In this document: positions 22,600 to 61,788 of the stretch, in pieces
How positions within the stretch are numbered: the stretch's first letter is position 1
Layout of the letters: each line of letters begins with the position of its first letter
Assembly: GCA_011046085.1 (NCBI GenBank)
Contig: DSBK01000103.1
Span: 6,084 to 70,083, forward strand
From: Actinomycetota bacterium
GTDB lineage: Bacteria; Actinomycetota; Aquicultoria; UBA3085; Oleimmundimicrobiaceae
DNA: 64,000 nucleotides
Direction: 5' to 3'
Notes under the pieces: generated by a model
What the model was told of the DNA's origin: nothing
The model's input: the letters and a program-made list of their open reading frames with translations, nothing else
The model's database searches: none
Translations under genes and position numbers: made by a program

Positions 22600-22885
22600 T
22601 TAATAATAGTCGATGGCCCAAAACTCTCTGCTCCATTAGTCGATAGTCTCTTAGTGGGGAGTCGGCAGTAAGTTCAATTGAGAATTAAAAACGAAAAAAT
22701 TTAAAATCTTTAAAGACATTCTTAATTTTTAATTACCGCCCGCACTGGGGTGGGTCGTTTTTATTTTTTTCGTAAGACCAGCATCTGGCATTCTCCATTC
22801 TCCATTTGTCTTCTAACTTTCCCCTTTCCCCTTCACCCTCTACCCTTATTTTGCCTTCTGCCATCTGCCATCAGCTATATGCAAT
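22600..22885. repeat. Intergenic repeat element, copy 2 (full length, about 250 bp)
   Basis: ...attagtcgatagtctcttagtggggagtcggcag...AT-rich linker...cccctttccccttcaccctctacccttattttgccttctgccatctgccatcagctatatgcaattag; near-collinear with copy 4 (31555-31790). Confidence 0.7.
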
Positions 22886-23943
22886 TAGCCAAAATATTTG
22901 TCTCTCAAAACGGAGGAAAGCTCAGCCGTTAATTTTATGCTTTTTTCCGCCAAATCCACCGCCATTGAACCCGTGCCACAATTTGGCGTGATTAAGCTCG
23001 CCTCAAGGAGTTTCATCTTATCAGCACCCTTGTCGACCAATAATTGAACTTTTTCTTCAAACCTTTTAAGTAAATCTTCCAGGGTCTCACCCGATATCGC
23101 ATCTGGACTCGGATAGGTGGATGGGACTATCCCCCAGGCGAGCACCCCTCCTCTATCCAAAAAATTATTGAGTTCTTTTGGATATAAGGCCATGCTTTCA
23201 GTGTGGTCATACGCATCGAAGCTTATGATGTCAACGGCAGTTTCCATTAAGATGCTCCAGTCAGTGCGACCACAGCAATGAACCCCGCAAAGGCTGTCCA
23301 CCGCATAAAAACACTCATTTAAATAGGATATAACCTCGTCTTTATTGAGTTTTATGTAAGCCGAGCCGTAAGACTGAAGATAGGGCTCGTCAAAGAAAAC
23401 AACCGTTTTTACATCGGGAGATAATTTCTTAAATTGTCTTAATTGCCACTTAGCCTTCATGATAAGCGTCTTTATGATGGCATCTCTTAAAAGATCATTG
23501 TAAAGAACCGCTTGTTTGTTTTGATCGGTTACGGTCAAACCAAAGCTAATTGGCCCTATCATCTGGCCTTTTAACATAACCAAATCAGCCGGCATGCTCT
23601 TTTCCAAGATGCTCATCATAGCATGGAACCCACGCGCGTAATCTTCGGATATCTTGAAATAATCTAAATCTTCGGCCAAAAATCTATCATAAAACCTCTC
23701 AAGCTCCCATGCCAAATTTCCCCGGGCCTCGAGATGAATCCTTTTCTTTTCCTCATCTATCCTTATCGCCGGCATGCCCTCTGAAATTTGAATGAACATG
23801 CTCTCTTTGAAAGAAACGTTAGGAAGTTGGGGCCATATCGGTATCTGGGGAGTATGCTTCAAAACCACCTCACACGCTTTATCTGCGTCTATGTGCGGCA
23901 TACTTCCAATGGTTGTCGGAAGACAGCATGGCTTAAATTCCAT
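22885..23943 (-). CDS. Short MetE-like (cobalamin-independent methionine synthase C-terminal fold) methyltransferase
   Basis: CCLPTTIGSMPH matches the MetE C-domain motif LPTTTIGSFPQ; the roughly 350 aa UroD/MetE-fold size is typical of methylcorrinoid-dependent methyltransferases. Confidence 0.65.
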   Translation of the reverse strand: MEFKPCCLPTTIGSMPHIDADKACEVVLKHTPQIPIWPQLPNVSFKESMFIQISEGMPAIRIDEEKKRIHLEARGNLAWELERFYDRFLAEDLDYFKISEDYARGFHAMMSILEKSMPADLVMLKGQMIGPISFGLTVTDQNKQAVLYNDLLRDAIIKTLIMKAKWQLRQFKKLSPDVKTVVFFDEPYLQSYGSAYIKLNKDEVISYLNECFYAVDSLCGVHCCGRTDWSILMETAVDIISFDAYDHTESMALYPKELNNFLDRGGVLAWGIVPSTYPSPDAISGETLEDLLKRFEEKVQLLVDKGADKMKLLEASLITPNCGTGSMAVDLAEKSIKLTAELSSVLRDKYFG

Positions 23944-31554: not shown

Positions 31555-31790
31555 GATTTTAGCTATCAGCCATTTGCTACCTGCTATCTACCATCAGCCA
31601 TTTAGTCGGTAGTCTCTTAGTCGGGAGTCGGGAGTTAACAATTATTAGTTTCTTAATTCTTTAATTCCTGTTACCCGTTCCCTATTACCCTTTGCTATTG
31701 TTGTTTTGCAGCCTACGGACTCTCTACCCTTTCCCCTTATTTTGCTATCAGCTATCTGCCATCTGCTATTTGCTATTTGCCAATTAGAAC
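31555..31790. repeat. Intergenic repeat element, copy 4 (full length)
   Basis: agctatcagccatttgctacctgctatctaccatcagccatttagtcggtagtctcttagtcgggagtcgggagttaac...ccctttccccttattttgctatcagctatctgccatctgctatttgctatttgccaattag. Confidence 0.7.
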
Positions 31791-51790: not shown

Positions 51791-53569
51791 TTAAATGTCT
51801 TTAGCAATACAGGTTTTATTGCGACCGCTTTTTTTGGCCCGATACATAGCTTGGTCTGCCTTATCGAATAAGAGCGGCGCTTCTTTTATTCCTCCAGCAA
51901 GAGAAGCTACCCCTATGCTTAACGTTATCGGAATACGTTTTCCTTCAAAAATGAAATCAAACTCCTCGACCCTGTAACGCAATTTCTCCGCAACCGCGAA
52001 TGTTTCCGTTTTTGAAATTTGCGGTAAAATTATGGCAAATTCATCTCCGCCCTGGCGGGCCGCAATATCCGCTTCACGCAAGTTTTTACGCAATATCTGC
52101 GCAACCGCTTTCAGCACCTCATCTCCTCTCAGGTGCCCATATGTATCATTAATTAGCTTAAATCGGTCTATGTCGAACACTATGATAGACAACTGGGATT
52201 CGTAGCGCTGAGCTCTACGAACTTCTCTCTCTAGAGTGCGGTTAAACCCATAGTGGTTGAGCAGCCCCGTAACTGCGTCAATCATGGACATCTTCTTCGC
52301 GTCTTCTTTTATTCGATTCATGAGCTTCTTTTGGTAGGGAAAACATGTGTCCCAATTTGTTATCCCTCTGTATACCGCGAGCGCATTTTCGCTGCATGTT
52401 CGGTAACCGCAAGCGCCACAATTCAGTTCATCTTGAGGAGAAAAAATTTCTGCCTCCGCCATCAATTTTTCTATCTCTTCTTTGGATGGGAACGATAAAT
52501 CTATTGCCTTGCTGGTAAATGTTCGCCTCAAACTAACTTTCGGCAAACCGGGGATTATCTCGGAGGGGCTGGGCCACCCAATTTTCCTATGCTCTTTCCT
52601 GTAGTTTTTCTGAATCTGATCCTTTAGAGTATATAAACTTCGCCCTTTAGCTAAACCGTTTCTCATCGCGGGACCATTAATACAACCATTGCAACTTAAA
52701 ACATCAATAAACCGAGCTTGAACCTCATTTAAACTTAATGCTCGTGCCAAAGATTGCACACCATCAACGCCCCTTGTTGCTTTAAAGTTCCGATTAATTG
52801 CACTCGTTTCCATCATAAATTTCCGGGGCAAGCCACCCGGTAAAGAATCAAATCGCGAAACTTTTTCAACCGACTTTAATTTCGCTTCCGATAGAGATTT
52901 TAAATCAACCTCTATATCATCAAGCATCTCCTTTAACTCAGAGAACGTTATGACCGCATCGATCGCATCCATAACGGATTCATCGGCCACCTCGGCTTTT
53001 TGAGCAACACAAGATGTTACGTAGACGGTGTAAACATCGCCATATAACATTTTACAAAGACGGCCTTGAGCAATCATCGGGGAAACAATTGGGGCGAGAT
53101 AAGGGATTAAATCAGGAAAATATTTCTCTATTAAATTTACAACGACAGGGCAAGTAGAACGTATTATTGGAAAATCATCGTCCTGGCTCAAAATATTCAT
53201 ATATTCATTGGCCACAAGCTCTTCGCCTAAAATGGCGCCCTCGACAGCATCGAATCCGAGCTTTATGAGACCGGCGGCAATTTCAGTTGAACCAAAAGGA
53301 TAAAAAGCCGCCAGATGCTCGGGAGCCAAGATTGCAATGGCATTCTTTTTTTTGTTGGCCAAACGCTGTACTCTTTTTTTACTATTTTTAAGTGTTAGGG
53401 CGCCCTGCGAACAAGCTATTACACATTCACCGCAAAATATGCACAGTTCATGCAGAACTTCAACGCCACCGTCAGCCACCTTTATACATTTAACGGGGCA
53501 CGAACGGATACATCTATAACATTCTTTACATTTTTCGGGGCTGCATTCGATTATGTTTAAGGTTTCCAT
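51791..53569 (-). CDS. Sensory [FeFe]-hydrogenase-like protein (2x[4Fe-4S] plus H-cluster domain plus extra 4-Cys cluster) fused to a C-terminal GGDEF diguanylate cyclase
   Basis: N-terminal CxxCxxCxxxCP x2. The H-domain carries L1 RSTCPVV (TSCCP with the proton-relay Cys replaced by Thr), L2 VTSCVAQKAE (MPCxxKxxE) and L3 DVLSCNGCINGP (ExMACxGGCxxG). A CGACGYRTC...C cluster follows, and the C-terminal GGDEF domain has an intact RQGGDEF motif. Confidence 0.7.
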   Translation of the reverse strand: METLNIIECSPEKCKECYRCIRSCPVKCIKVADGGVEVLHELCIFCGECVIACSQGALTLKNSKKRVQRLANKKKNAIAILAPEHLAAFYPFGSTEIAAGLIKLGFDAVEGAILGEELVANEYMNILSQDDDFPIIRSTCPVVVNLIEKYFPDLIPYLAPIVSPMIAQGRLCKMLYGDVYTVYVTSCVAQKAEVADESVMDAIDAVITFSELKEMLDDIEVDLKSLSEAKLKSVEKVSRFDSLPGGLPRKFMMETSAINRNFKATRGVDGVQSLARALSLNEVQARFIDVLSCNGCINGPAMRNGLAKGRSLYTLKDQIQKNYRKEHRKIGWPSPSEIIPGLPKVSLRRTFTSKAIDLSFPSKEEIEKLMAEAEIFSPQDELNCGACGYRTCSENALAVYRGITNWDTCFPYQKKLMNRIKEDAKKMSMIDAVTGLLNHYGFNRTLEREVRRAQRYESQLSIIVFDIDRFKLINDTYGHLRGDEVLKAVAQILRKNLREADIAARQGGDEFAIILPQISKTETFAVAEKLRYRVEEFDFIFEGKRIPITLSIGVASLAGGIKEAPLLFDKADQAMYRAKKSGRNKTCIAKDI

Positions 53570-56648: not shown

Positions 56649-56759
56649 TCTTTCTTACCTCCAAAAATCAGTTATTTGTTAGTGGTTGATTGTTAATAGC
56701 AAACAAAAATCAAAATTTTTCAATTGCCGTTTTTATCTTTTACTTTTCATTTTTAATTA

Positions 56760-56818
56760 ACTTTTAACTCTACCCTTTGCCCATTACCCTTATTTTGCTA
56801 TCTACCATACGCCATTAG
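56760..56818. repeat. Intergenic repeat element, copy 6 (3' module only)
   Basis: ctctaccctttgcccattacccttattttgctatctaccatacgccattagctatttcc. Confidence 0.55.
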
Positions 56819-58033
56819 CTATTTCCCAAGACCAAACTTTTCATGCAAAGCCCTTACGGCTAAATTCACATCTTTCTCATCAATAACACATGAAATTTTT
56901 ATCGAAGATGTGCTTATCATCCCAATATTTATGTTATTTTCAGCCAGAGCTGAAAACATATCTGCCGCCACCCCTGAGTGTGTTCTCATTCCTGCCCCGA
57001 CTAAGGAAATTTTAGCAATTCTTTCATCGCGCACGGAACCCCTTGCCCCAAGCTCGCTAACCATTTTGTCAACTACGCTTTTCGCTTTCGTTAAATCATC
57101 CTTCTCCACGGTAAAAGATATGTCAGTATAGTCCTTCTCGCTGACATTTTGAATAATCAAATCAACATTTACATTTGCATCAGCTAGATTCCTGAAAACT
57201 TTTGCAGCAATCCCTGGCCTATCAGGTACGCCTAAAATTGTAATTTTGGCCTCGTTAATATCATGAGTAACTCCACTTATTATGGCCTTTTCCATTATTG
57301 CATCTGCCTCCTTAATCAACGTTCCAGGCTTCTCCGAAAAGCTCGACCGAACATGAATACAAACACCATAATTCCGACCAAATTCCACGGATCTTGCCTG
57401 CAAAACTTTGGCGCCGGTCGCCGCCATCTCCAACATCTCATCGTAAGATATCTCATCAATTTTACGGGAGTTCTCAACTATGCGCGGGTCAGCCGTAAAA
57501 ACACCCTCTACATCTGTATATATTTCACAAATATCGGCTTTAAGTTTGGCTGCCAGAGCCACCGCAGTGGTATCGGAACCGCCTCTTCCCAGAGTAGTGA
57601 TGTCAGAGTCAACCGTCACCCCTTGAAAACCAGCCACAATGACAATTTTTCCTTTCTTAAGCTCACTTAAAATTCGGTCCGATTTTATATCTATTATCTT
57701 CGCTTTTGTATGAGCGGCATCCGTTAAAATTCCCACTTGCAAACCAGTAAAAGAAATTGCATCGTAACCTAAAGCTTCAATTGCCATAGCTAAAAGCGCC
57801 ACCGACATCTGTTCGCCGGTAGCTAAAAGCATGTCAAGCTCTCTTTTGGGAGGTGAAGAGGTTATCTCGTAAGCCATTTTCAAAAGATTGTCGGTACTAT
57901 CCCCAACAGCGGATACGACAACGACCACGGAGTTTCCTTCGCTTTTAGCTTTAACCACGCGTTTTGCTACAACTTTTATCCGCTCTGCATTTACAACCGA
58001 GCTCCCACCGTATTTTTGAACAACTATTCCCAA
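56819..58033 (-). CDS. lysC: Aspartate kinase (with C-terminal ACT domains)
   Basis: [13 protein letters not shown]...; 404 aa. Confidence 0.9.
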
Positions 58034-58098: not shown

Positions 58099-60378
58099 TT
58101 AATCAAGCGGTCGATTAAATAAATGGTGATTAGCGACAATTTTGAGTCTTTCGCTCAAATCACCCAGACTCACTGAGAGTAAATTATTTAAGAGGTGCAC
58201 ACCGGACGAGCGTTTAATAAGAATGGCCAGATTCGAAAGAAACCGTTTATACATATCTATCTCTTCTCCTAAAGAGATATGATCCATCTCAACAATTTCA
58301 ATTTTTCCATTGTTAATGCCCAAATTAAGATCATCGTTTAAAATATATTTCTTGACTTCGACTTCAATATTTTGCACCAGTTTACTTCCGCCTATTTTGG
58401 CATATTGCTTCAATAAAGAATTGGTTATGTTAACAAACGTCTCCCTTATCGCCCTTCTCTCTTCTTCTTTGTTCTTCAACAACTTCCAATAGAAATCTTC
58501 CTCGGAAAAAATTTTGATTTTTCCCCTCTCGAATGCCAAGAGGAACGCTTCGACCACATCGGGATCAAATTGGGTGCCGGAATTTTTTTTAACCTCTTCA
58601 ATAGCCTCGGTGGCCATCTTCGCCCTATGATATGGCCTGTTGGAAGTCATCGCTTCAAAACAATCGGCAACTGTAATGATCCTGGCTCCCAAAGGTATCT
58701 CTTCACCCGATAATCCTCCGGGGTAACCTAGGCCATCATAGCGCTCGTGGTGATGGCGAACAAGCGATATGATATCCCAAGGAAATTCAATCGGCACCAA
58801 TATGTTTGCTCCTATTAAGGGATGGGTTTGTATTATTAGCATCTCATCGAAGGTGAACTTGCCTGGTTTAAGAAGTATCTGCTCGCCTATGCCAATCTTC
58901 CCTATGTCATGCAATATTGCAGCTACTTTAATCTGTTCTCTTTCGGACTCGCTTAACCCCATTTCTTCCGCTATGGCAACCGCATACTCCGTAACTCTAT
59001 CGGCATGGCCCCTTGTGTAGGTGTCTTTCGCATCCACCGCTTCGGCCAAAGCTCTTATAACGCCAAAGAAATTATTCCTTATTTCCTGATAAAGTTTAGT
59101 ATTTTCAAGAGCTACCGCCGCCTCGTTGGCCATCGCGGTGAGAAGCTCGAGGTCATCATCATCAAACGTCTTGTCGCCAATCTTGTTGGTTATGTTTAAC
59201 ACACCGATTATTTTACTTCGCACCTTCAAAGGAACAACAATTGCATCTTTTGTGCCCTCTTTTGCTTGAATTGGTTGAAAACGAGGGTCATTTATCCCGT
59301 TGATAAGCAGAAGCGGCTCGCCCTTCTTGGCTACCCAACCAGAAATTCCGTCGCCGAGCTTCAATTTCGTGCTTTTTACAACTTCATCACTTAAGCCGTG
59401 AGCCGCCTTGATGGTCAACTCATCTTTTTTCTCATTTAGCATCATCAAAGAAGCTTTTTCTGCCCCTATGATTCCGGTGGCCGCATCCAGTATCGTTTCC
59501 AAAAGCTCTTTCTCGTTGAGAGAAGAGCCCAACGCTCTCCCCACGCTGGCTACGCAAGATTTTGCTTGGGACTGGGAGGTGCCAAGCTCGTTTATCAGCG
59601 ATGAAAATTTTCTGGTCATCTTATTGCAAGCTTCAAATAGCTCGCCGAACTCATCTTTGGATAAAATTTTTGCTCGTTTCTTAAAATCGCCCTTTTCTAC
59701 CTGCTGAGCGGTACACTTCAAAATCTCAATCGGGCGATACACAAATTTTGATAATACCACCCACTGCAGAAACAAACTAACCAAAATGACAACAAGCGCT
59801 AGCAAAAAACTTCTTAAGTAAATTGTGTCCACAACCTCAGCAAATTCGACAAGGTTGACATATATGTGAATTGCTCCCGACAACTCCCCCTCAACAAAAA
59901 ATGGCATCACAATCTCTTGAGCTCTTGTTCTTCTATCAAAAAACCCAAAACTTTCTACAACCTCGCCTTTTTCCGATTCCTCCCCGATGAAAACCCAAAT
60001 TTGTTCAATGATTTCCCTTTTTTCAATGGCGCTACGCAAGCATTCATCCTCATCTTTCTCTCCTTTCTCCTCGGCATCCAATGAAAAGAGTATGTTGGCC
60101 CCTTTATCAACCACATGAAAGCAAACAAAATCTTGATTTAAGGAATGCGCATAGGAAAATAGGTATTTTTCTTCAGGTAGAGATATGACCTCATCTTCTA
60201 AAAAATTCTCAACATGGTATTTAAGAGAATTTGCGATAATAAAATTTTTCTCTTTTGCCCACTCCAAACAACGGTTTTTTTGCCATTGGACTGAAAAATA
60301 AGTCATAGCTCCAACAAGCACAAAAATCAATAGTCCGCCGGCTACCCCAAGCTTCCAGCGCAACCTCATTTTAACCAT
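58099..60378 (-). CDS. HD-GYP c-di-GMP phosphodiesterase with N-terminal TM/periplasmic region, HAMP and GAF domains
   Basis: HD...HDIGKIGI...HHERYDGLGYP (HD-GYP); HAMP linker after TM2; GAF domain in the middle. Confidence 0.85.
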   Translation of the reverse strand: MVKMRLRWKLGVAGGLLIFVLVGAMTYFSVQWQKNRCLEWAKEKNFIIANSLKYHVENFLEDEVISLPEEKYLFSYAHSLNQDFVCFHVVDKGANILFSLDAEEKGEKDEDECLRSAIEKREIIEQIWVFIGEESEKGEVVESFGFFDRRTRAQEIVMPFFVEGELSGAIHIYVNLVEFAEVVDTIYLRSFLLALVVILVSLFLQWVVLSKFVYRPIEILKCTAQQVEKGDFKKRAKILSKDEFGELFEACNKMTRKFSSLINELGTSQSQAKSCVASVGRALGSSLNEKELLETILDAATGIIGAEKASLMMLNEKKDELTIKAAHGLSDEVVKSTKLKLGDGISGWVAKKGEPLLLINGINDPRFQPIQAKEGTKDAIVVPLKVRSKIIGVLNITNKIGDKTFDDDDLELLTAMANEAAVALENTKLYQEIRNNFFGVIRALAEAVDAKDTYTRGHADRVTEYAVAIAEEMGLSESEREQIKVAAILHDIGKIGIGEQILLKPGKFTFDEMLIIQTHPLIGANILVPIEFPWDIISLVRHHHERYDGLGYPGGLSGEEIPLGARIITVADCFEAMTSNRPYHRAKMATEAIEEVKKNSGTQFDPDVVEAFLLAFERGKIKIFSEEDFYWKLLKNKEEERRAIRETFVNITNSLLKQYAKIGGSKLVQNIEVEVKKYILNDDLNLGINNGKIEIVEMDHISLGEEIDMYKRFLSNLAILIKRSSGVHLLNNLLSVSLGDLSERLKIVANHHLFNRPLD

Positions 60379-60429
60379 GCTTACCCCTTGTTATTTTATG
60401 TTTCAGTTAATTTATCGGCACTTTCTCAA

Positions 60430-60466
60430 AAAAAATAACCCCCGACCATCTAGGCCGGGGGTCTTA
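60430..60466 (-). terminator. Rho-independent terminator hairpin (copy A), 50 nt upstream of the HD-GYP start
   Basis: Minus strand: ACCCCCGGCC-uagaug-GUCGGGGGU followed by UAUUUUUUUU; a 30 nt identical copy occurs at 60806-60842. Confidence 0.6.
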
Positions 60467-60805
60467 ACTTCCGTAACGCAGCACCCTTCTTCATAAAATC
60501 AGCTACAGTTGCCTTTAGTTATAGAGATTAATATCATCCACAAAATGGGGTTTTTTCTTTACTTTGCTTGTTTTAAAAATGCCATATCATTTTTAGGTTT
60601 AAAATAGGTTTACGAGGATTAGCGCCGAAGCTGTTTGAGCCCCGATTTGTCGGGACGAGTTCTGCAGGCGCCCGAGTAAACCGTACATTTTAAGCCGTTA
60701 AGAAAATGATCAGGCTACTTTTCTTTTGGTTACTTTTCTTAGGTGAGTAAGAAAAGTAACAATTAAAATTAGTTTTAATTATTACAAAAAATTTTTTGGG
60801 CAAAA

Positions 60806-60842
60806 TAATAACCCCCGACCATCTAGGCCGGGGGTTATACAA
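60806..60842 (-). terminator. Rho-independent terminator of the por operon (copy B of the same hairpin)
   Basis: Same hairpin followed by UAUUAUUUU, immediately 3' of the porB stop. Confidence 0.65.
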
Positions 60843-60867
60843 TCCAAACAACAAAACAGAGGGAGAT

Positions 60868-61788
60868 TTAACCCTCTCCGCAGAGTTTAAGAAGTTTTCC
60901 CCAGTCTCTATCGACCTTCTCTTGCAGCTCCTTGACGATATGTTCGTTCTCGGGCTTGAAGAGATGCTTAAATCTTCCTTGAAGTTTGAGCCATTCAGCC
61001 AAGGGTTTCTTTTCCCTCGGCTTATAAGTCAACTTCCACTCACCATCTTCAACCTCGTATAATGGCCAGAAGCAGGTTTCAACCGCAAGCCGTGCCATCT
61101 CAAGAGTTGCGTCGGAAGCGTGACGCCATCCGCGGGGACAAGGCGCAATCACATTTAAAAACGCCGCTCCCTTAAGATCGAATGCTTTCTTCGATTTTTT
61201 GAGCAAGTCTTTCCAAGAGGAAGGAGACGCTTGGGCTACATAAGGAATATCGTGTGCGGCGATGCAGGCGGTTAAATTCTTACGGTTTTGCTTCTTACCC
61301 GGCTCCGCCTTGCCCACTGCGGAAGTGGTAGTCCACGCGCCTCTCGGGGTAGAGCTTGAGCGCTGAATGCCAGTATTCATATAAGCCTCGTTGTCATAGC
61401 AAACATAAACCATATCATGGCCACGCTCCATCGCTCCCGAAAGAGACTGAAAGCCGATATCGTAGGTTCCTCCGTCGCCACCAAAAGCCACAAATTTAAT
61501 CTCCTTATCCAGTTTCCCTTGACGTTTCAAGGATTGGTAGGCAGCCTCCACTCCACTAATTGTCGCGGCGACATTTTCAAAAGCCGTGTGGATGTAAGGC
61601 GTATTCCAAGCGGTGGAGGGATATATCGTGGTCGATACCTCAAGACATCCGGTAGAGCAACCAACGACCACGGGTTTATCGGTCCCCATAAGAATCTGCC
61701 TTACCACAGTTCCCGCTCCACAACCAGCGCAGAGCCGATGGCCAGAGGTGAGTCTTTCTTTTCTCGTCGTCAACTCCTTTAATTTCAT
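60868..61788 (-). CDS. porB: 2-oxoacid (pyruvate):ferredoxin oxidoreductase beta subunit (TPP-binding)
   Basis: GDGGTYDIG TPP motif; 306 aa. Confidence 0.85.
   Translation of the reverse strand: MKLKELTTRKERLTSGHRLCAGCGAGTVVRQILMGTDKPVVVGCSTGCLEVSTTIYPSTAWNTPYIHTAFENVAATISGVEAAYQSLKRQGKLDKEIKFVAFGGDGGTYDIGFQSLSGAMERGHDMVYVCYDNEAYMNTGIQRSSSTPRGAWTTTSAVGKAEPGKKQNRKNLTACIAAHDIPYVAQASPSSWKDLLKKSKKAFDLKGAAFLNVIAPCPRGWRHASDATLEMARLAVETCFWPLYEVEDGEWKLTYKPREKKPLAEWLKLQGRFKHLFKPENEHIVKELQEKVDRDWGKLLKLCGEG

Follow-up and report, generated by a model that had tools for sequence, protein, structure and literature searches.

Near-identical terminator-like hairpins flank a lineage-specific insert between porB and an HD-GYP gene

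Two near-identical hairpins lie between a pyruvate:ferredoxin oxidoreductase operon and the gene for a putative c-di-GMP phosphodiesterase, and the locus raises the question of whether they, or the structured DNA that separates them, take part in the control of that gene. Our preferred answer, to which we give a probability of roughly 0.6, is that the por terminator is present twice, flanking a stretch (X) whose insertion is limited to this lineage, and that the HD-GYP gene has its own sigma-28-type promoter after the second hairpin. Coordinates refer to the window, that is, the whole 64-kb stretch of DNA that was analysed.

The spacer and its repeated hairpin

The genes on either side of the spacer are those given by the first-pass annotation, with porGDAB upstream and a HAMP-GAF-HD-GYP gene downstream. 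The ORFs upstream of porB have Pfam matches to POR_N/PFOR_II, Fer4 and POR, and the HDIGK, HHE and GYP motifs were all found in the HD-GYP protein. The spacer from porB to the HD-GYP gene is 489 nt long and has one and the same sequence in two ENA assemblies (L007, L008), while two Logan contigs (L001 and L009) jointly span it, again with identical sequence. Since four independent assemblies agree to the base, the spacer with its repeats is not an assembly artefact; these four assemblies of the organism show zero differences over the spacer and about 0.06% overall. Owing to the same identity, a covariation test on the four conspecific sequences gave no information. No tRNA or tmRNA was found in the 64-kb window.

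58099..60378, minus strand: HAMP-GAF-HD-GYP protein, 759 aa, putative c-di-GMP phosphodiesterase (Pfam HD_5, HD, GAF, HAMP)
60427..60463, minus strand: T2, second terminator hairpin (terminator-like call; fold)
60429..60462, no strand assigned: direct-repeat copy adjoining HD-GYP, 34 nt (repeat family D1, reference copy)
60798..60838, minus strand: T1, predicted intrinsic terminator of the por operon (terminator-like call; fold; orthologues in relatives)
60802..60835, no strand assigned: direct-repeat copy adjoining porB, 34 nt (repeat family D1, 33/34 against the reference)
60868..61788, minus strand: porB, TPP-binding beta subunit, last gene of the porGDAB pyruvate:ferredoxin oxidoreductase operon (Pfam TPP_enzyme_C)

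The repeated hairpin string described earlier exists, with its coordinates shifted by 1-2 nt: as quoted it is 29 nt long and lies at 60434-60462 and 60807-60835, and the complete direct repeat extends to 34 nt, of which 33 are identical between two copies 373 nt apart. The 26-nt hairpin core had two matches in the 64-kb window when up to three mismatches were allowed, and none in 100 shuffles. Neither blastn nor a repeat search of the whole window revealed a third copy of the repeat, and no copy of the 26-nt core or of the hairpin occurred in the other fetched stretches of this organism, which represent part of its genome.

T1 begins 29 nt past the porB stop codon and consists of a 13-bp stem (ATAACCCCCGGCC/GGTCGGGGGTTAT, 60838-60808) with the tail TATTTTGCCC at 60807-60798, and T2, which lies 58 nt from the HD-GYP ATG, has its stem at 60463-60437 and the tail ATTTTTTTTG at 60436-60427. 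The U-rich tails that follow the stems read UAUUUUGCCC for T1 and AUUUUUUUUG for T2, the latter being the better U-tract of the two, with an 8-U run. Both hairpins fold more stably as minus-strand RNA (T1, -25.8 kcal/mol on the minus strand versus -20.2 on the plus strand; T2, -23.3 versus -16.6 kcal/mol) since one G.U pair of the minus-strand RNA corresponds to an A.C mismatch in the plus-strand RNA. This agrees with their initial description as intrinsic-terminator-like on the minus strand, where a GC stem-loop is followed by a U-tract and to which the terminator-like calls are confined. Judged from these features, T1 and T2 are both predicted intrinsic (Rho-independent) terminators, and T2 would presumably also act as one in vivo.

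The locus in related species and the nature of the insert

The locus was compared with that of three Actinomycetota species of the class Aquicultoria (L002/L005, L010/L011 and L006). All share the gene order dnaX-ybaB-recR-porGDAB-hairpin-HD-GYP-aspartate kinase-asd, with a single hairpin in each relative, and their spacers measure 151 nt (L002/L005), 126 nt (L010/L011) and 58 nt (L006) as against 489 nt here. The post-porB hairpin of L002, L010 and L006 lies at an offset of about 25-35 nt, near that of T1, and in four of four species its outer stem ACCCCC/GGGGGT is invariant while the inner stem varies in sequence with its pairing kept. The suggestion that one of the two hairpins terminates the por operon thus fits T1, which is orthologous to the lone post-porB hairpin of the three related species; lying 3' of the last gene of the unit and conserved with its pairing, T1 has the attributes of an operon terminator and would stop por transcription as its lone orthologue would in the relatives.

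In all three relatives the orthologous HD-GYP gene lacks the 339-nt interior, X, on its upstream side. Because these species have one hairpin and a short spacer, we read X as an insertion peculiar to this lineage, with one copy of a duplicated terminator on either side, and T2 would have arisen when the insertion event duplicated 34 nt comprising the hairpin and the start of its T-tract. The pair resembles tandem or insulating intrinsic terminators in its GC stem-loops and U-tracts, in the place of T1 past the last gene of the operon, in the T1 orthologues that stay paired despite sequence change, and in the position of T2 just before the next candidate promoter. Tandem terminators, however, are usually differing hairpins close together, whereas here near-exact duplicates (33/34 over 34 nt) have 339 nt of unrelated DNA between them. 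A further point against our reading is that a flanking duplication of 34 nt is much longer than the target duplication of any classical transposon.

60463..60801, no strand assigned: X, 339-nt non-coding, palindrome-rich, lineage-specific insert between the repeat copies (absent from relatives)
60581..60715, no strand assigned: long imperfect palindrome ("rod") in X, about 135 nt (inverted repeats I12 and I24)
60729..60760, no strand assigned: perfect 13-bp AT-rich hairpin GTTACTTTTCTTA-GGTGAG-TAAGAAAAGTAAC (inverted repeat I4, 100% complementary)

X is AT-rich (about 35% GC over 60465-60807). The longest ORFs of the spacer would encode 54, 39, 32 and 29 aa, the 54-aa ORF crosses the T1 hairpin, and no product matching the 54-aa or 32-aa ORF is on record in sequence databases; none of the ORFs of X is credible as coding sequence. 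The whole 489-nt spacer had no blastn match in plasmids or phages, three patterns from the interior of X had no match in viral contigs, and when the spacer was compared by blastn with the window, and X with every fetched locus, each matched only itself. We also considered X as a decayed tandem duplicate, either of the 3' end of porB or of the promoter together with the 5' end of the HD-GYP gene, and rejected both models since local alignments scored no higher than those of shuffles.

The strong local hairpins that had been pointed out in the first-pass annotation were recovered, namely the 13-bp hairpin, CCCGA-TTTG-TCGGG and the GCGCC/GGCGC pair. The arms of the first (60729-60741/60748-60760) overlap the next palindrome, at 60756-60785 (I8), and the other two belong to the rod, in which CCCGA-TTTG-TCGGG (60641-60654) forms the apical hairpin. 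The rod has a core of 58% GC and arms that align, with indels, at about 80% identity, and it folds at -48.1 kcal/mol on the minus strand and -49.1 kcal/mol on the plus strand (z = -5.1 and -4.1). Relative to shuffles, the z scores were -7.2 (minus) and -5.5 (plus) for the region including the terminator hairpins and -4.8 (minus) and -3.7 (plus) for the interior of X alone. Unlike the terminator hairpins, X showed no G.U asymmetry between the strands (9 versus 8 G.U pairs), and its folding energies were -86.6 and -86.1 kcal/mol. Since X folds alike on both strands, its structure points to palindromy at the level of DNA rather than to a selected RNA, and X appears to be functionally inert, with no demonstrable function expected in the control of the HD-GYP gene.

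A candidate promoter for the HD-GYP gene

The second hairpin had been thought to leave little room for a promoter upstream of the HD-GYP gene. This view does not hold, as the 58 nt after T2 contain a conserved box with the element GCCGATAA suitably spaced from the ATG.

60410..60438, minus strand: conserved promoter-like box TTATTTTTTTTGAGAAAGTGCCGATAAAT (28/29 identical to L002/L005)
60379..60404, minus strand: predicted 26-nt 5' UTR of HD-GYP (from the position of GCCGATAA at -15 to -8)

The box follows directly after T2 and carries the -10-like element at 60419-60412, 33-34 nt before the ATG. The stretch TTATTTTTTTTGAGAAA(G/T)TGCCGATAAAT is identical at 28 of 29 positions between the window and L002, while the HD-GYP proteins are just 70% identical. 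The version in L010 reads TTGCCGATGAAAT and retains GCCGATGA. From the last base of the -10-like element to the ATG there are 33 nt in the window, 33 in L002 and 27 in L010. For comparison we used the sigma-28 consensus, in which a -35 TAAA is separated by about 15 nt from GCCGATAA, the established flagellar/WhiG -10 element located at -15 to -8 (PMC8325347, PMC12784957). The element matches this -10 consensus at 8/8 positions here and in L002/L005 and at 7/8 in L010, and when the 64-kb window was searched with up to one mismatch, the HD-GYP site was the sole intergenic match upstream of a correctly oriented gene. The -35 position (60438-60435, -34 to -31) reads TTAT in the window and in L002, with two of four bases agreeing with TAAA, and shares bases with the foot and U-tract of T2, while L010 has TAAA at 12 nt, not 15 nt, from the -10-like element. 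In total the box has two mismatches, and two base mismatches were tolerated in the published promoter search (PMC8325347).

From these matches we infer a sigma-28 promoter in the box. The conserved box and the perfect -10-like element after T2 make it most likely that the HD-GYP gene has its own promoter there, and T2 would then be an insulating terminator and not a leader attenuator. T2 would abut the upstream edge of this sigma-28 (FliA/WhiG)-type promoter, whose T-run would at the same time be the U-tract of T2; in L002 the box occurs with no hairpin immediately before it. Transcription would start near 60404 and yield a 26-nt leader with a ribosome-binding site (Shine-Dalgarno sequence AAGGGG at 60389-60384), and T2 would merely insulate, keeping por read-through, or any transcripts born in X, out of the HD-GYP gene.

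Other promoter candidates fared less well. The first-pass annotation had noted a promoter-like site on the plus strand, but two such sites were found where 2.5 were expected, which is not above chance, and a consensus scan of 60000-61300 returned no sigma-70-like promoter on the minus strand. A second sigma-28-like match, TAAA-N13-GCCGTTAA within X (GCCGTTAA at 60694-60701, plus strand), was set aside as a chance occurrence, with the wrong spacing and no gene downstream.

Promoters of the sigma-28 (FliA/SigD/WhiG) type are known from c-di-GMP genes, and E. coli pdeH (yhjH) is FliA-dependent. The present case is similar in that GCCGATAA precedes a gene of the c-di-GMP phosphodiesterase type and is kept in two relatives; it differs in its poor -35 (TTAT, not TAAA), in an enzyme that is HD-GYP and not EAL, and in a sigma factor and transcription start that are predicted ones. 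In Rubrobacter (R. radiotolerans) five validated WhiG-type promoters lie ahead of diguanylate cyclase/phosphodiesterase genes (PMC8325347), and flagellar gene clusters are present in 41-91% of species in basal actinobacterial classes including Aquicultoria (PMC10746217). No sigma-28 or flagellar gene was seen among the scanned ORFs, which cover part of the 64-kb window. A sigma-28/WhiG-type promoter before an HD-GYP gene in this deep-branching acetogenic lineage would fit the sigma-WhiG/c-di-GMP circuit of Rubrobacter and Streptomyces, and would imply a feedback loop linking c-di-GMP breakdown to the motility sigma factor.

Weighing the alternatives

Two further explanations would give X a role as RNA. 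It had been proposed that X and T2 form a long regulatory leader of the HD-GYP gene, either a riboswitch, for c-di-GMP for example, or an attenuator, with a transcription start upstream of T2 and T2 as the expression platform. The closeness of T2 to the ATG (58 nt) speaks for such a leader, as does the arrangement in L006, the most distant relative, where the lone hairpin abuts the HD-GYP ATG with no promoter box; there the gene must be expressed either by transcripts that read through the por terminator or from a promoter inside porB, and by extension read-through could be relevant to HD-GYP here too. Nevertheless, an Rfam scan of the whole window at gathering thresholds returned zero families, and in 60000-61300 at E <= 10 there were only 20 weak sub-threshold matches, among which neither GEMM-I (RF01051), c-di-GMP-II (RF01786) nor any other riboswitch family occurred. 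The likeness to c-di-GMP riboswitches is therefore one of context only, a structured region and a terminator upstream of a c-di-GMP-related gene; neither of their covariance models matched at any of the thresholds used, conservation of the region in the three relatives is lacking, since X is absent even where the HD-GYP gene and the promoter box are both retained, and the conserved sigma-28-type promoter candidate sits between the terminator and the gene. No convincing antiterminator and no strong local complement was seen when about 100 nt upstream of T2 were read by eye and the fold of the whole region was inspected, the one strong complement to the arms of T2 in that fold being T1, 373 nt away, and the consensus scan predicted no upstream promoter on the minus strand. 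We regard the leader as improbable, and the guess of a c-di-GMP riboswitch found no backing in the scan.

A less improbable though still doubtful alternative is that X is a small RNA gene of at most about 340 nt on the minus strand, with its own promoter just after T1 and its end at T2, so that the duplicated hairpin would belong to the small RNA as its terminator. It would account for the presence of a strong T2 with an 8-U run when the por operon already has T1, and both the degree of folding (z of about -5, far beyond shuffles; the interior scored -4.8 and the rod -5.1) and a near-exact strong terminator at the 3' end are also what a small RNA would show, which counts against our preferred reading. 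One suitably placed element could serve as its promoter:

60778..60786, minus strand: extended -10-like sequence TGTAATAAT, read at 60786-60778 (sequence reading; weak, the sole candidate promoter found for a transcript of X)

The consensus scan, on the other hand, found no minus-strand promoter, and no known small RNA family, 6S RNA included, had an Rfam match in the region. The best Rfam match in 60000-61300 was STnc490, which scored 25.3 bits where the cut-off is 56, a score driven by the terminator hairpin and an AT-rich hairpin. X is absent from all three relatives and has no homologue in plasmids, phages, viral contigs, the window or the fetched loci, its equal folding energy and G.U counts on both strands look like DNA palindromy, unlike those of the terminator hairpins, and duplication alone accounts for the identity of T2 with T1. 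We rejected 6S RNA, group II intron domain V, dif/Xer sites and integron attC, which gave no Rfam hit and whose architecture, by the features commonly ascribed to them, is unlike that found here.

The remaining explanations concern the origin of the repeats. Compatible with our reading of a duplicated terminator around X, but itself rather unlikely, is an origin of X as a mobile or integrative element, miniature or decayed, that inserted at the terminator hairpin by site-specific or Campbell-type recombination, the 34-nt repeats then being attL/attR cores. The near-exact (33/34) repeats flank DNA unrelated to either side, the insert is limited to one lineage, its interior is rich in palindromes, as in non-autonomous elements, and 34 nt falls within the length range of att cores. 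MITEs, REP/BIME and att-flanked elements share with X the form of a short, AT-rich, non-coding, palindromic intergenic insert at the end of an operon with direct repeats; unlike them, X has no terminal inverted repeats, no evidence of multiple copies and no recombinase gene, for which its longest ORF (54 aa) leaves no room. With a flanking duplication of 34 nt and no second copy found, it does not qualify as a MITE or IS, and the plasmid, phage and viral collections held no match to it. As for the notion that the hairpin is a generic repeat, REP-like or a terminator reused throughout the genome, whose two copies are here by coincidence, its one support is an exact 27-nt match after a small ORF in an unrelated high-GC JGI metagenome contig (L004), which we judge to be coincidental. 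There were only two copies in 64 kb even with three mismatches allowed, and none in the other fetched stretches of the organism, so that REP/BIME-like dispersal was not seen; no exact match occurred in GTDB species-representative genomes or viral contigs, and by its position the hairpin is an orthologue of the por terminator found in the relatives. Genome-wide reuse, which had been offered as the simple alternative, is thus very improbable, more so than any other explanation considered here.

For the preferred reading, a duplicated terminator around X, the consequences are fairly ordinary and matter little beyond annotation: the identical hairpins near a signalling gene would be a duplicated terminator, not a riboswitch. 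It is a long shot that X represents either a newborn small RNA gene or a miniature insertion or integrative element of a new kind, in each case one that duplicated the 34-nt terminator on entry; if it did, an element of this type would arrive already insulated by terminators on both sides. A 34-nt terminator duplication flanking an insert is in any case an unusual footprint, and if recurrent it could indicate an insertion mechanism that targets terminators.

Terminator-like hairpins in the porB to HD-GYP spacer

The flanking genes named in the first-pass annotation, a four-gene por operon upstream and an HD-GYP protein downstream, were borne out, the latter being a HAMP-GAF-HD-GYP protein with HDIGK, HHE and GYP motifs. 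Between porB and this protein's gene, the next on the minus strand (58099-60378), lie 489 nt of spacer. The two copies of a 34-nt direct repeat there carry near-identical hairpins, T1 near porB and T2 near the HD-GYP gene, and enclose 339 nt of interior sequence (X, 60463-60801).

Features of the porB to HD-GYP spacer
60868-61788, minus strand: porB
60429-60462 and 60802-60835: 34-nt direct repeat, 33 of 34 positions identical, 373 nt spacing
60838-60808, minus strand: stem of T1, tail UAUUUUGCCC, called as intrinsic-terminator-like
60463-60437, minus strand: stem of T2, tail AUUUUUUUUG, called as intrinsic-terminator-like
60785-60798: palindrome
60756-60785: palindrome
60729-60760: perfect 13-bp hairpin
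60581-60715: imperfect palindrome of ~135 nt with a GC-rich core

The repeated hairpin string reported previously is 29 nt long and lies within the 34-nt repeat, at coordinates 1-2 nt from those first given. As RNA, T1 folds with -25.8 kcal/mol on the minus strand versus -20.2 on the plus strand, and T2 with -23.3 versus -16.6 kcal/mol, because a stem position paired as G.U in the minus-strand RNA is a mismatched A.C in the plus-strand RNA. Since the spacer is base-for-base identical in two ENA assemblies and is jointly spanned with no differences by two Logan contigs, an assembly error can be dismissed as the source of the duplication; divergence among the available assemblies is just ~0.06%. 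Both Logan contigs (sample SRR7787775) stop inside X, at the end of L001 and the start of L009, and overlap by 27 nt (window 60576-60602) at the long palindrome's edge, which hints that the assembly graph branches there because of strain variation or a repeated k-mer. Two other assemblies cross this point without a break.

Ancestry of the spacer and properties of the probable insert

Close relatives of the HD-GYP protein are very few: one 100% cluster, named as an Actinobacteria MAG, is followed by proteins of 70%, 55% and 50% identity, the first of these from Candidatus Oleimmundimicrobium americanum (Actinomycetota, class Aquicultoria). The relatives' loci share the gene order dnaX-ybaB-recR-porGDAB-HD-GYP-aspartate kinase-asd-cation efflux, and in three related species the porB to HD-GYP spacer measures 151 nt (L002/L005), 126 nt (L010/L011) and 58 nt (L006). 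Each has a single hairpin, ~25-35 nt from the porB stop, with an outer stem (ACCCCC/GGGGGT) that is invariant across the species compared and an inner stem that differs in sequence in every species while its pairing is kept; the L002 loop, CTAAATG, resembles CTAGATG of the window. T1, the orthologous hairpin after porB, is therefore the ancestral por terminator. By parsimony, the ~340-370 nt of the window spacer that all three relatives lack would be an insertion in the window lineage after its split from that of L002. In L010 (5001-7268) and L011 (3279-5546) two genes stand in place of a single HD-GYP orthologue, one for HAMP-GAF (483 aa) and the other for the HD-GYP domain (240-267 aa), which could reflect a frameshift, a pseudogene or a genuine split.

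The local hairpins noted from the sequence are present in X as members of one palindrome chain. GC content is ~35% (measured over 60465-60807) versus 44% for the window, and no ORF in X exceeds 54 aa, the ORF of that length crossing the T1 hairpin. X folds far better than its shuffles on both strands (z = -4.8 minus, -3.7 plus), with near-equal energies (-86.6 and -86.1 kcal/mol, respectively) and G.U counts (9 and 8), unlike the strand-asymmetric terminators; such symmetry is the signature of DNA-level palindromes and not of selected RNA structure. Searches with X or the whole spacer gave no match in plasmid and phage collections and only self-hits in the rest of the window and every fetched locus, and three interior patterns of X had no match in viral contigs. 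Local alignments of X to the porB 3' end and to the promoter plus HD-GYP 5' end scored no better than shuffles; a decayed copy of either flank, and thus a simple tandem duplication, was rejected.

The putative HD-GYP promoter and the reading of T2

The ~50 nt after T2 had been thought to leave little room for a promoter, but a conserved promoter-like box was found there. The 29 nt after the T2 stem (60438-60410, minus strand), TTATTTTTTTTGAGAAAGTGCCGATAAAT, are identical at 28 of 29 positions in L002/L005, despite just 70% identity between the proteins and a remaining spacer that cannot be aligned; L010 keeps TTGCCGATGAAAT. The box contains GCCGATAA (60419-60412), the -10 consensus of flagellar-type sigma-28/FliA/WhiG promoters, which lies at -15 to -8 and is paired with a -35 TAAA (PMC8325347; PMC12784957). 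With up to one mismatch this element occurs 91 times in the 64 kb window, twice between genes, and of these two only the match at 60419-60412 precedes a gene and points towards it. The weak point of the candidate promoter is its -35 position, which reads TTAT (2 of 4 matches to TAAA) and overlaps the foot of T2. Counting from -15 to -8 predicts a transcription start near 60404 and a 26-nt leader in which AAGGGG (60389-60384) is the Shine-Dalgarno sequence. In the three species that have the box, the -10-like element ends 33, 33 and 27 nt before the ATG. Such a putative promoter fits the five validated WhiG-type promoters before diguanylate cyclase or phosphodiesterase genes in Rubrobacter (PMC8325347) and the flagellar gene clusters common in basal actinobacterial classes including Aquicultoria (PMC10746217).

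In L006 (GCA_964480305.1, CAYZOM010000003.1), the most distant relative, just 3 nt separate the end of the por hairpin (112-155) from the HD-GYP start codon. The sole Shine-Dalgarno-like sequence is the 3' arm of that hairpin (AAGGGGG), and no promoter box is present. HD-GYP expression there must proceed via read-through of the por terminator or a promoter inside porB, translation requires melting of the hairpin, and the coupling of por to HD-GYP thus differs between species.

The most economical reading is that X arrived beside the por terminator in an insertion event that also duplicated 34 nt, comprising the hairpin and the start of its T-tract; the single mismatch would stem from a T in the T1 tail having later become A. 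T1 would still terminate por, while T2, where the terminator T-run passes into the HD-GYP promoter on its upstream side (34 nt separate hairpin and box in L002, where no hairpin directly precedes the box), would act as a second, insulating terminator, with HD-GYP transcribed from its own sigma-28-type promoter and not through a T2-containing leader. Transposon target duplications do not reach the 34 nt seen here; this length is within the att-core range of integrative elements, or the duplication could be a product of cruciform repair. X lacks a recombinase gene, terminal inverted repeats and any known second copy. The observation itself was confirmed; the terminator part of the original interpretation stood and the regulatory-leader part did not. 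All the components are of known kinds, namely intrinsic terminators, a putative sigma-28-type promoter and an orphan intergenic insert, and the 34-nt terminator duplication is the sole unusual aspect.

An independent minus-strand small RNA of up to ~340 nt ending at T2 is unlikely: the consensus scan predicted no sigma-70-like promoter on that strand, the sole candidate in X, found by eye, is an extended -10-like TGTAATAAT (60786-60778), and, because no selection need be invoked to explain why T2 matches T1, that match speaks for neither a small RNA nor an attenuator. A long leader or riboswitch for HD-GYP appears very improbable, given that X is missing from all three relatives, that the conserved box lies downstream of T2 and that no Rfam riboswitch is among the 20 weak matches (E <= 10) in 60000-61300. 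All of these fall far under their cut-offs, the best being STnc490 (25.3 bits versus 56), driven by the terminator hairpin and an AT-rich hairpin. Neither c-di-GMP family is listed, contrary to the initial guess, nor are other riboswitches or 6S RNA; across the whole window every Rfam family stays below its gathering score, and tRNA and tmRNA genes are absent. That the hairpin is a genome-wide reused element, as also proposed, is scarcely credible and finds no support in the accessible sequence: the 26-nt core of the repeat has exactly two matches in the 64 kb window with three mismatches tolerated (0 of 100 shuffles had any), no further copy emerged from scanning the full window for repeats or from blastn of the spacer against it, and the single exact match elsewhere sits in an unrelated high-GC contig. 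This match of 27 nt, AACCCCCGGCCTAGATGGTCGGGGGTT, in L004 (JGI Ga0172380_10162253, 900-930) was unexpected; it directly follows a 121-aa arginine-rich ORF, ~60 nt before a tRNA-like sequence, and probably reflects a chance resemblance of GC-rich terminator stems.

Neighbouring genes and an intergenic repeat family

A minus-strand Wood-Ljungdahl cluster (22885-47748) encodes CO dehydrogenase, acetyl-CoA synthase, CdhD, a RACo activator, methylenetetrahydrofolate reductase, a formate-dehydrogenase-like molybdopterin enzyme and formate-tetrahydrofolate ligase, in keeping with an acetogen within Aquicultoria. Intergenic repeats of ~65 nt (minus strand, AATAGCWGATGGCAGATGGCAGATAGCAAAATAAGGGTAAAGGGTARAGGG) lie between minus-strand genes at 22814-22878, 31705-31783 and 56758-56822; the sites are after ORF 22885-23943, in the gap between the acetyl-CoA synthase gene and cdhD, and directly after aspartate kinase upstream of asd. 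Three or four 7-nt units (GATGGCA/GATAGCA, giving UAG/UGG triplets every 7 nt) precede three GGG blocks spaced 7 nt apart, and the repeat, which has no Rfam match, looks like an array of putative binding sites for a regulator that recognises RNA or DNA. Finally, ~5 kb downstream of the HD-GYP gene, a minus-strand gene (51791-53569) encodes a 592-aa protein with an Fe-hydrogenase large-subunit-like domain and a GGDEF diguanylate cyclase domain, which may synthesise c-di-GMP in response to redox state or H2 in the HD-GYP neighbourhood.
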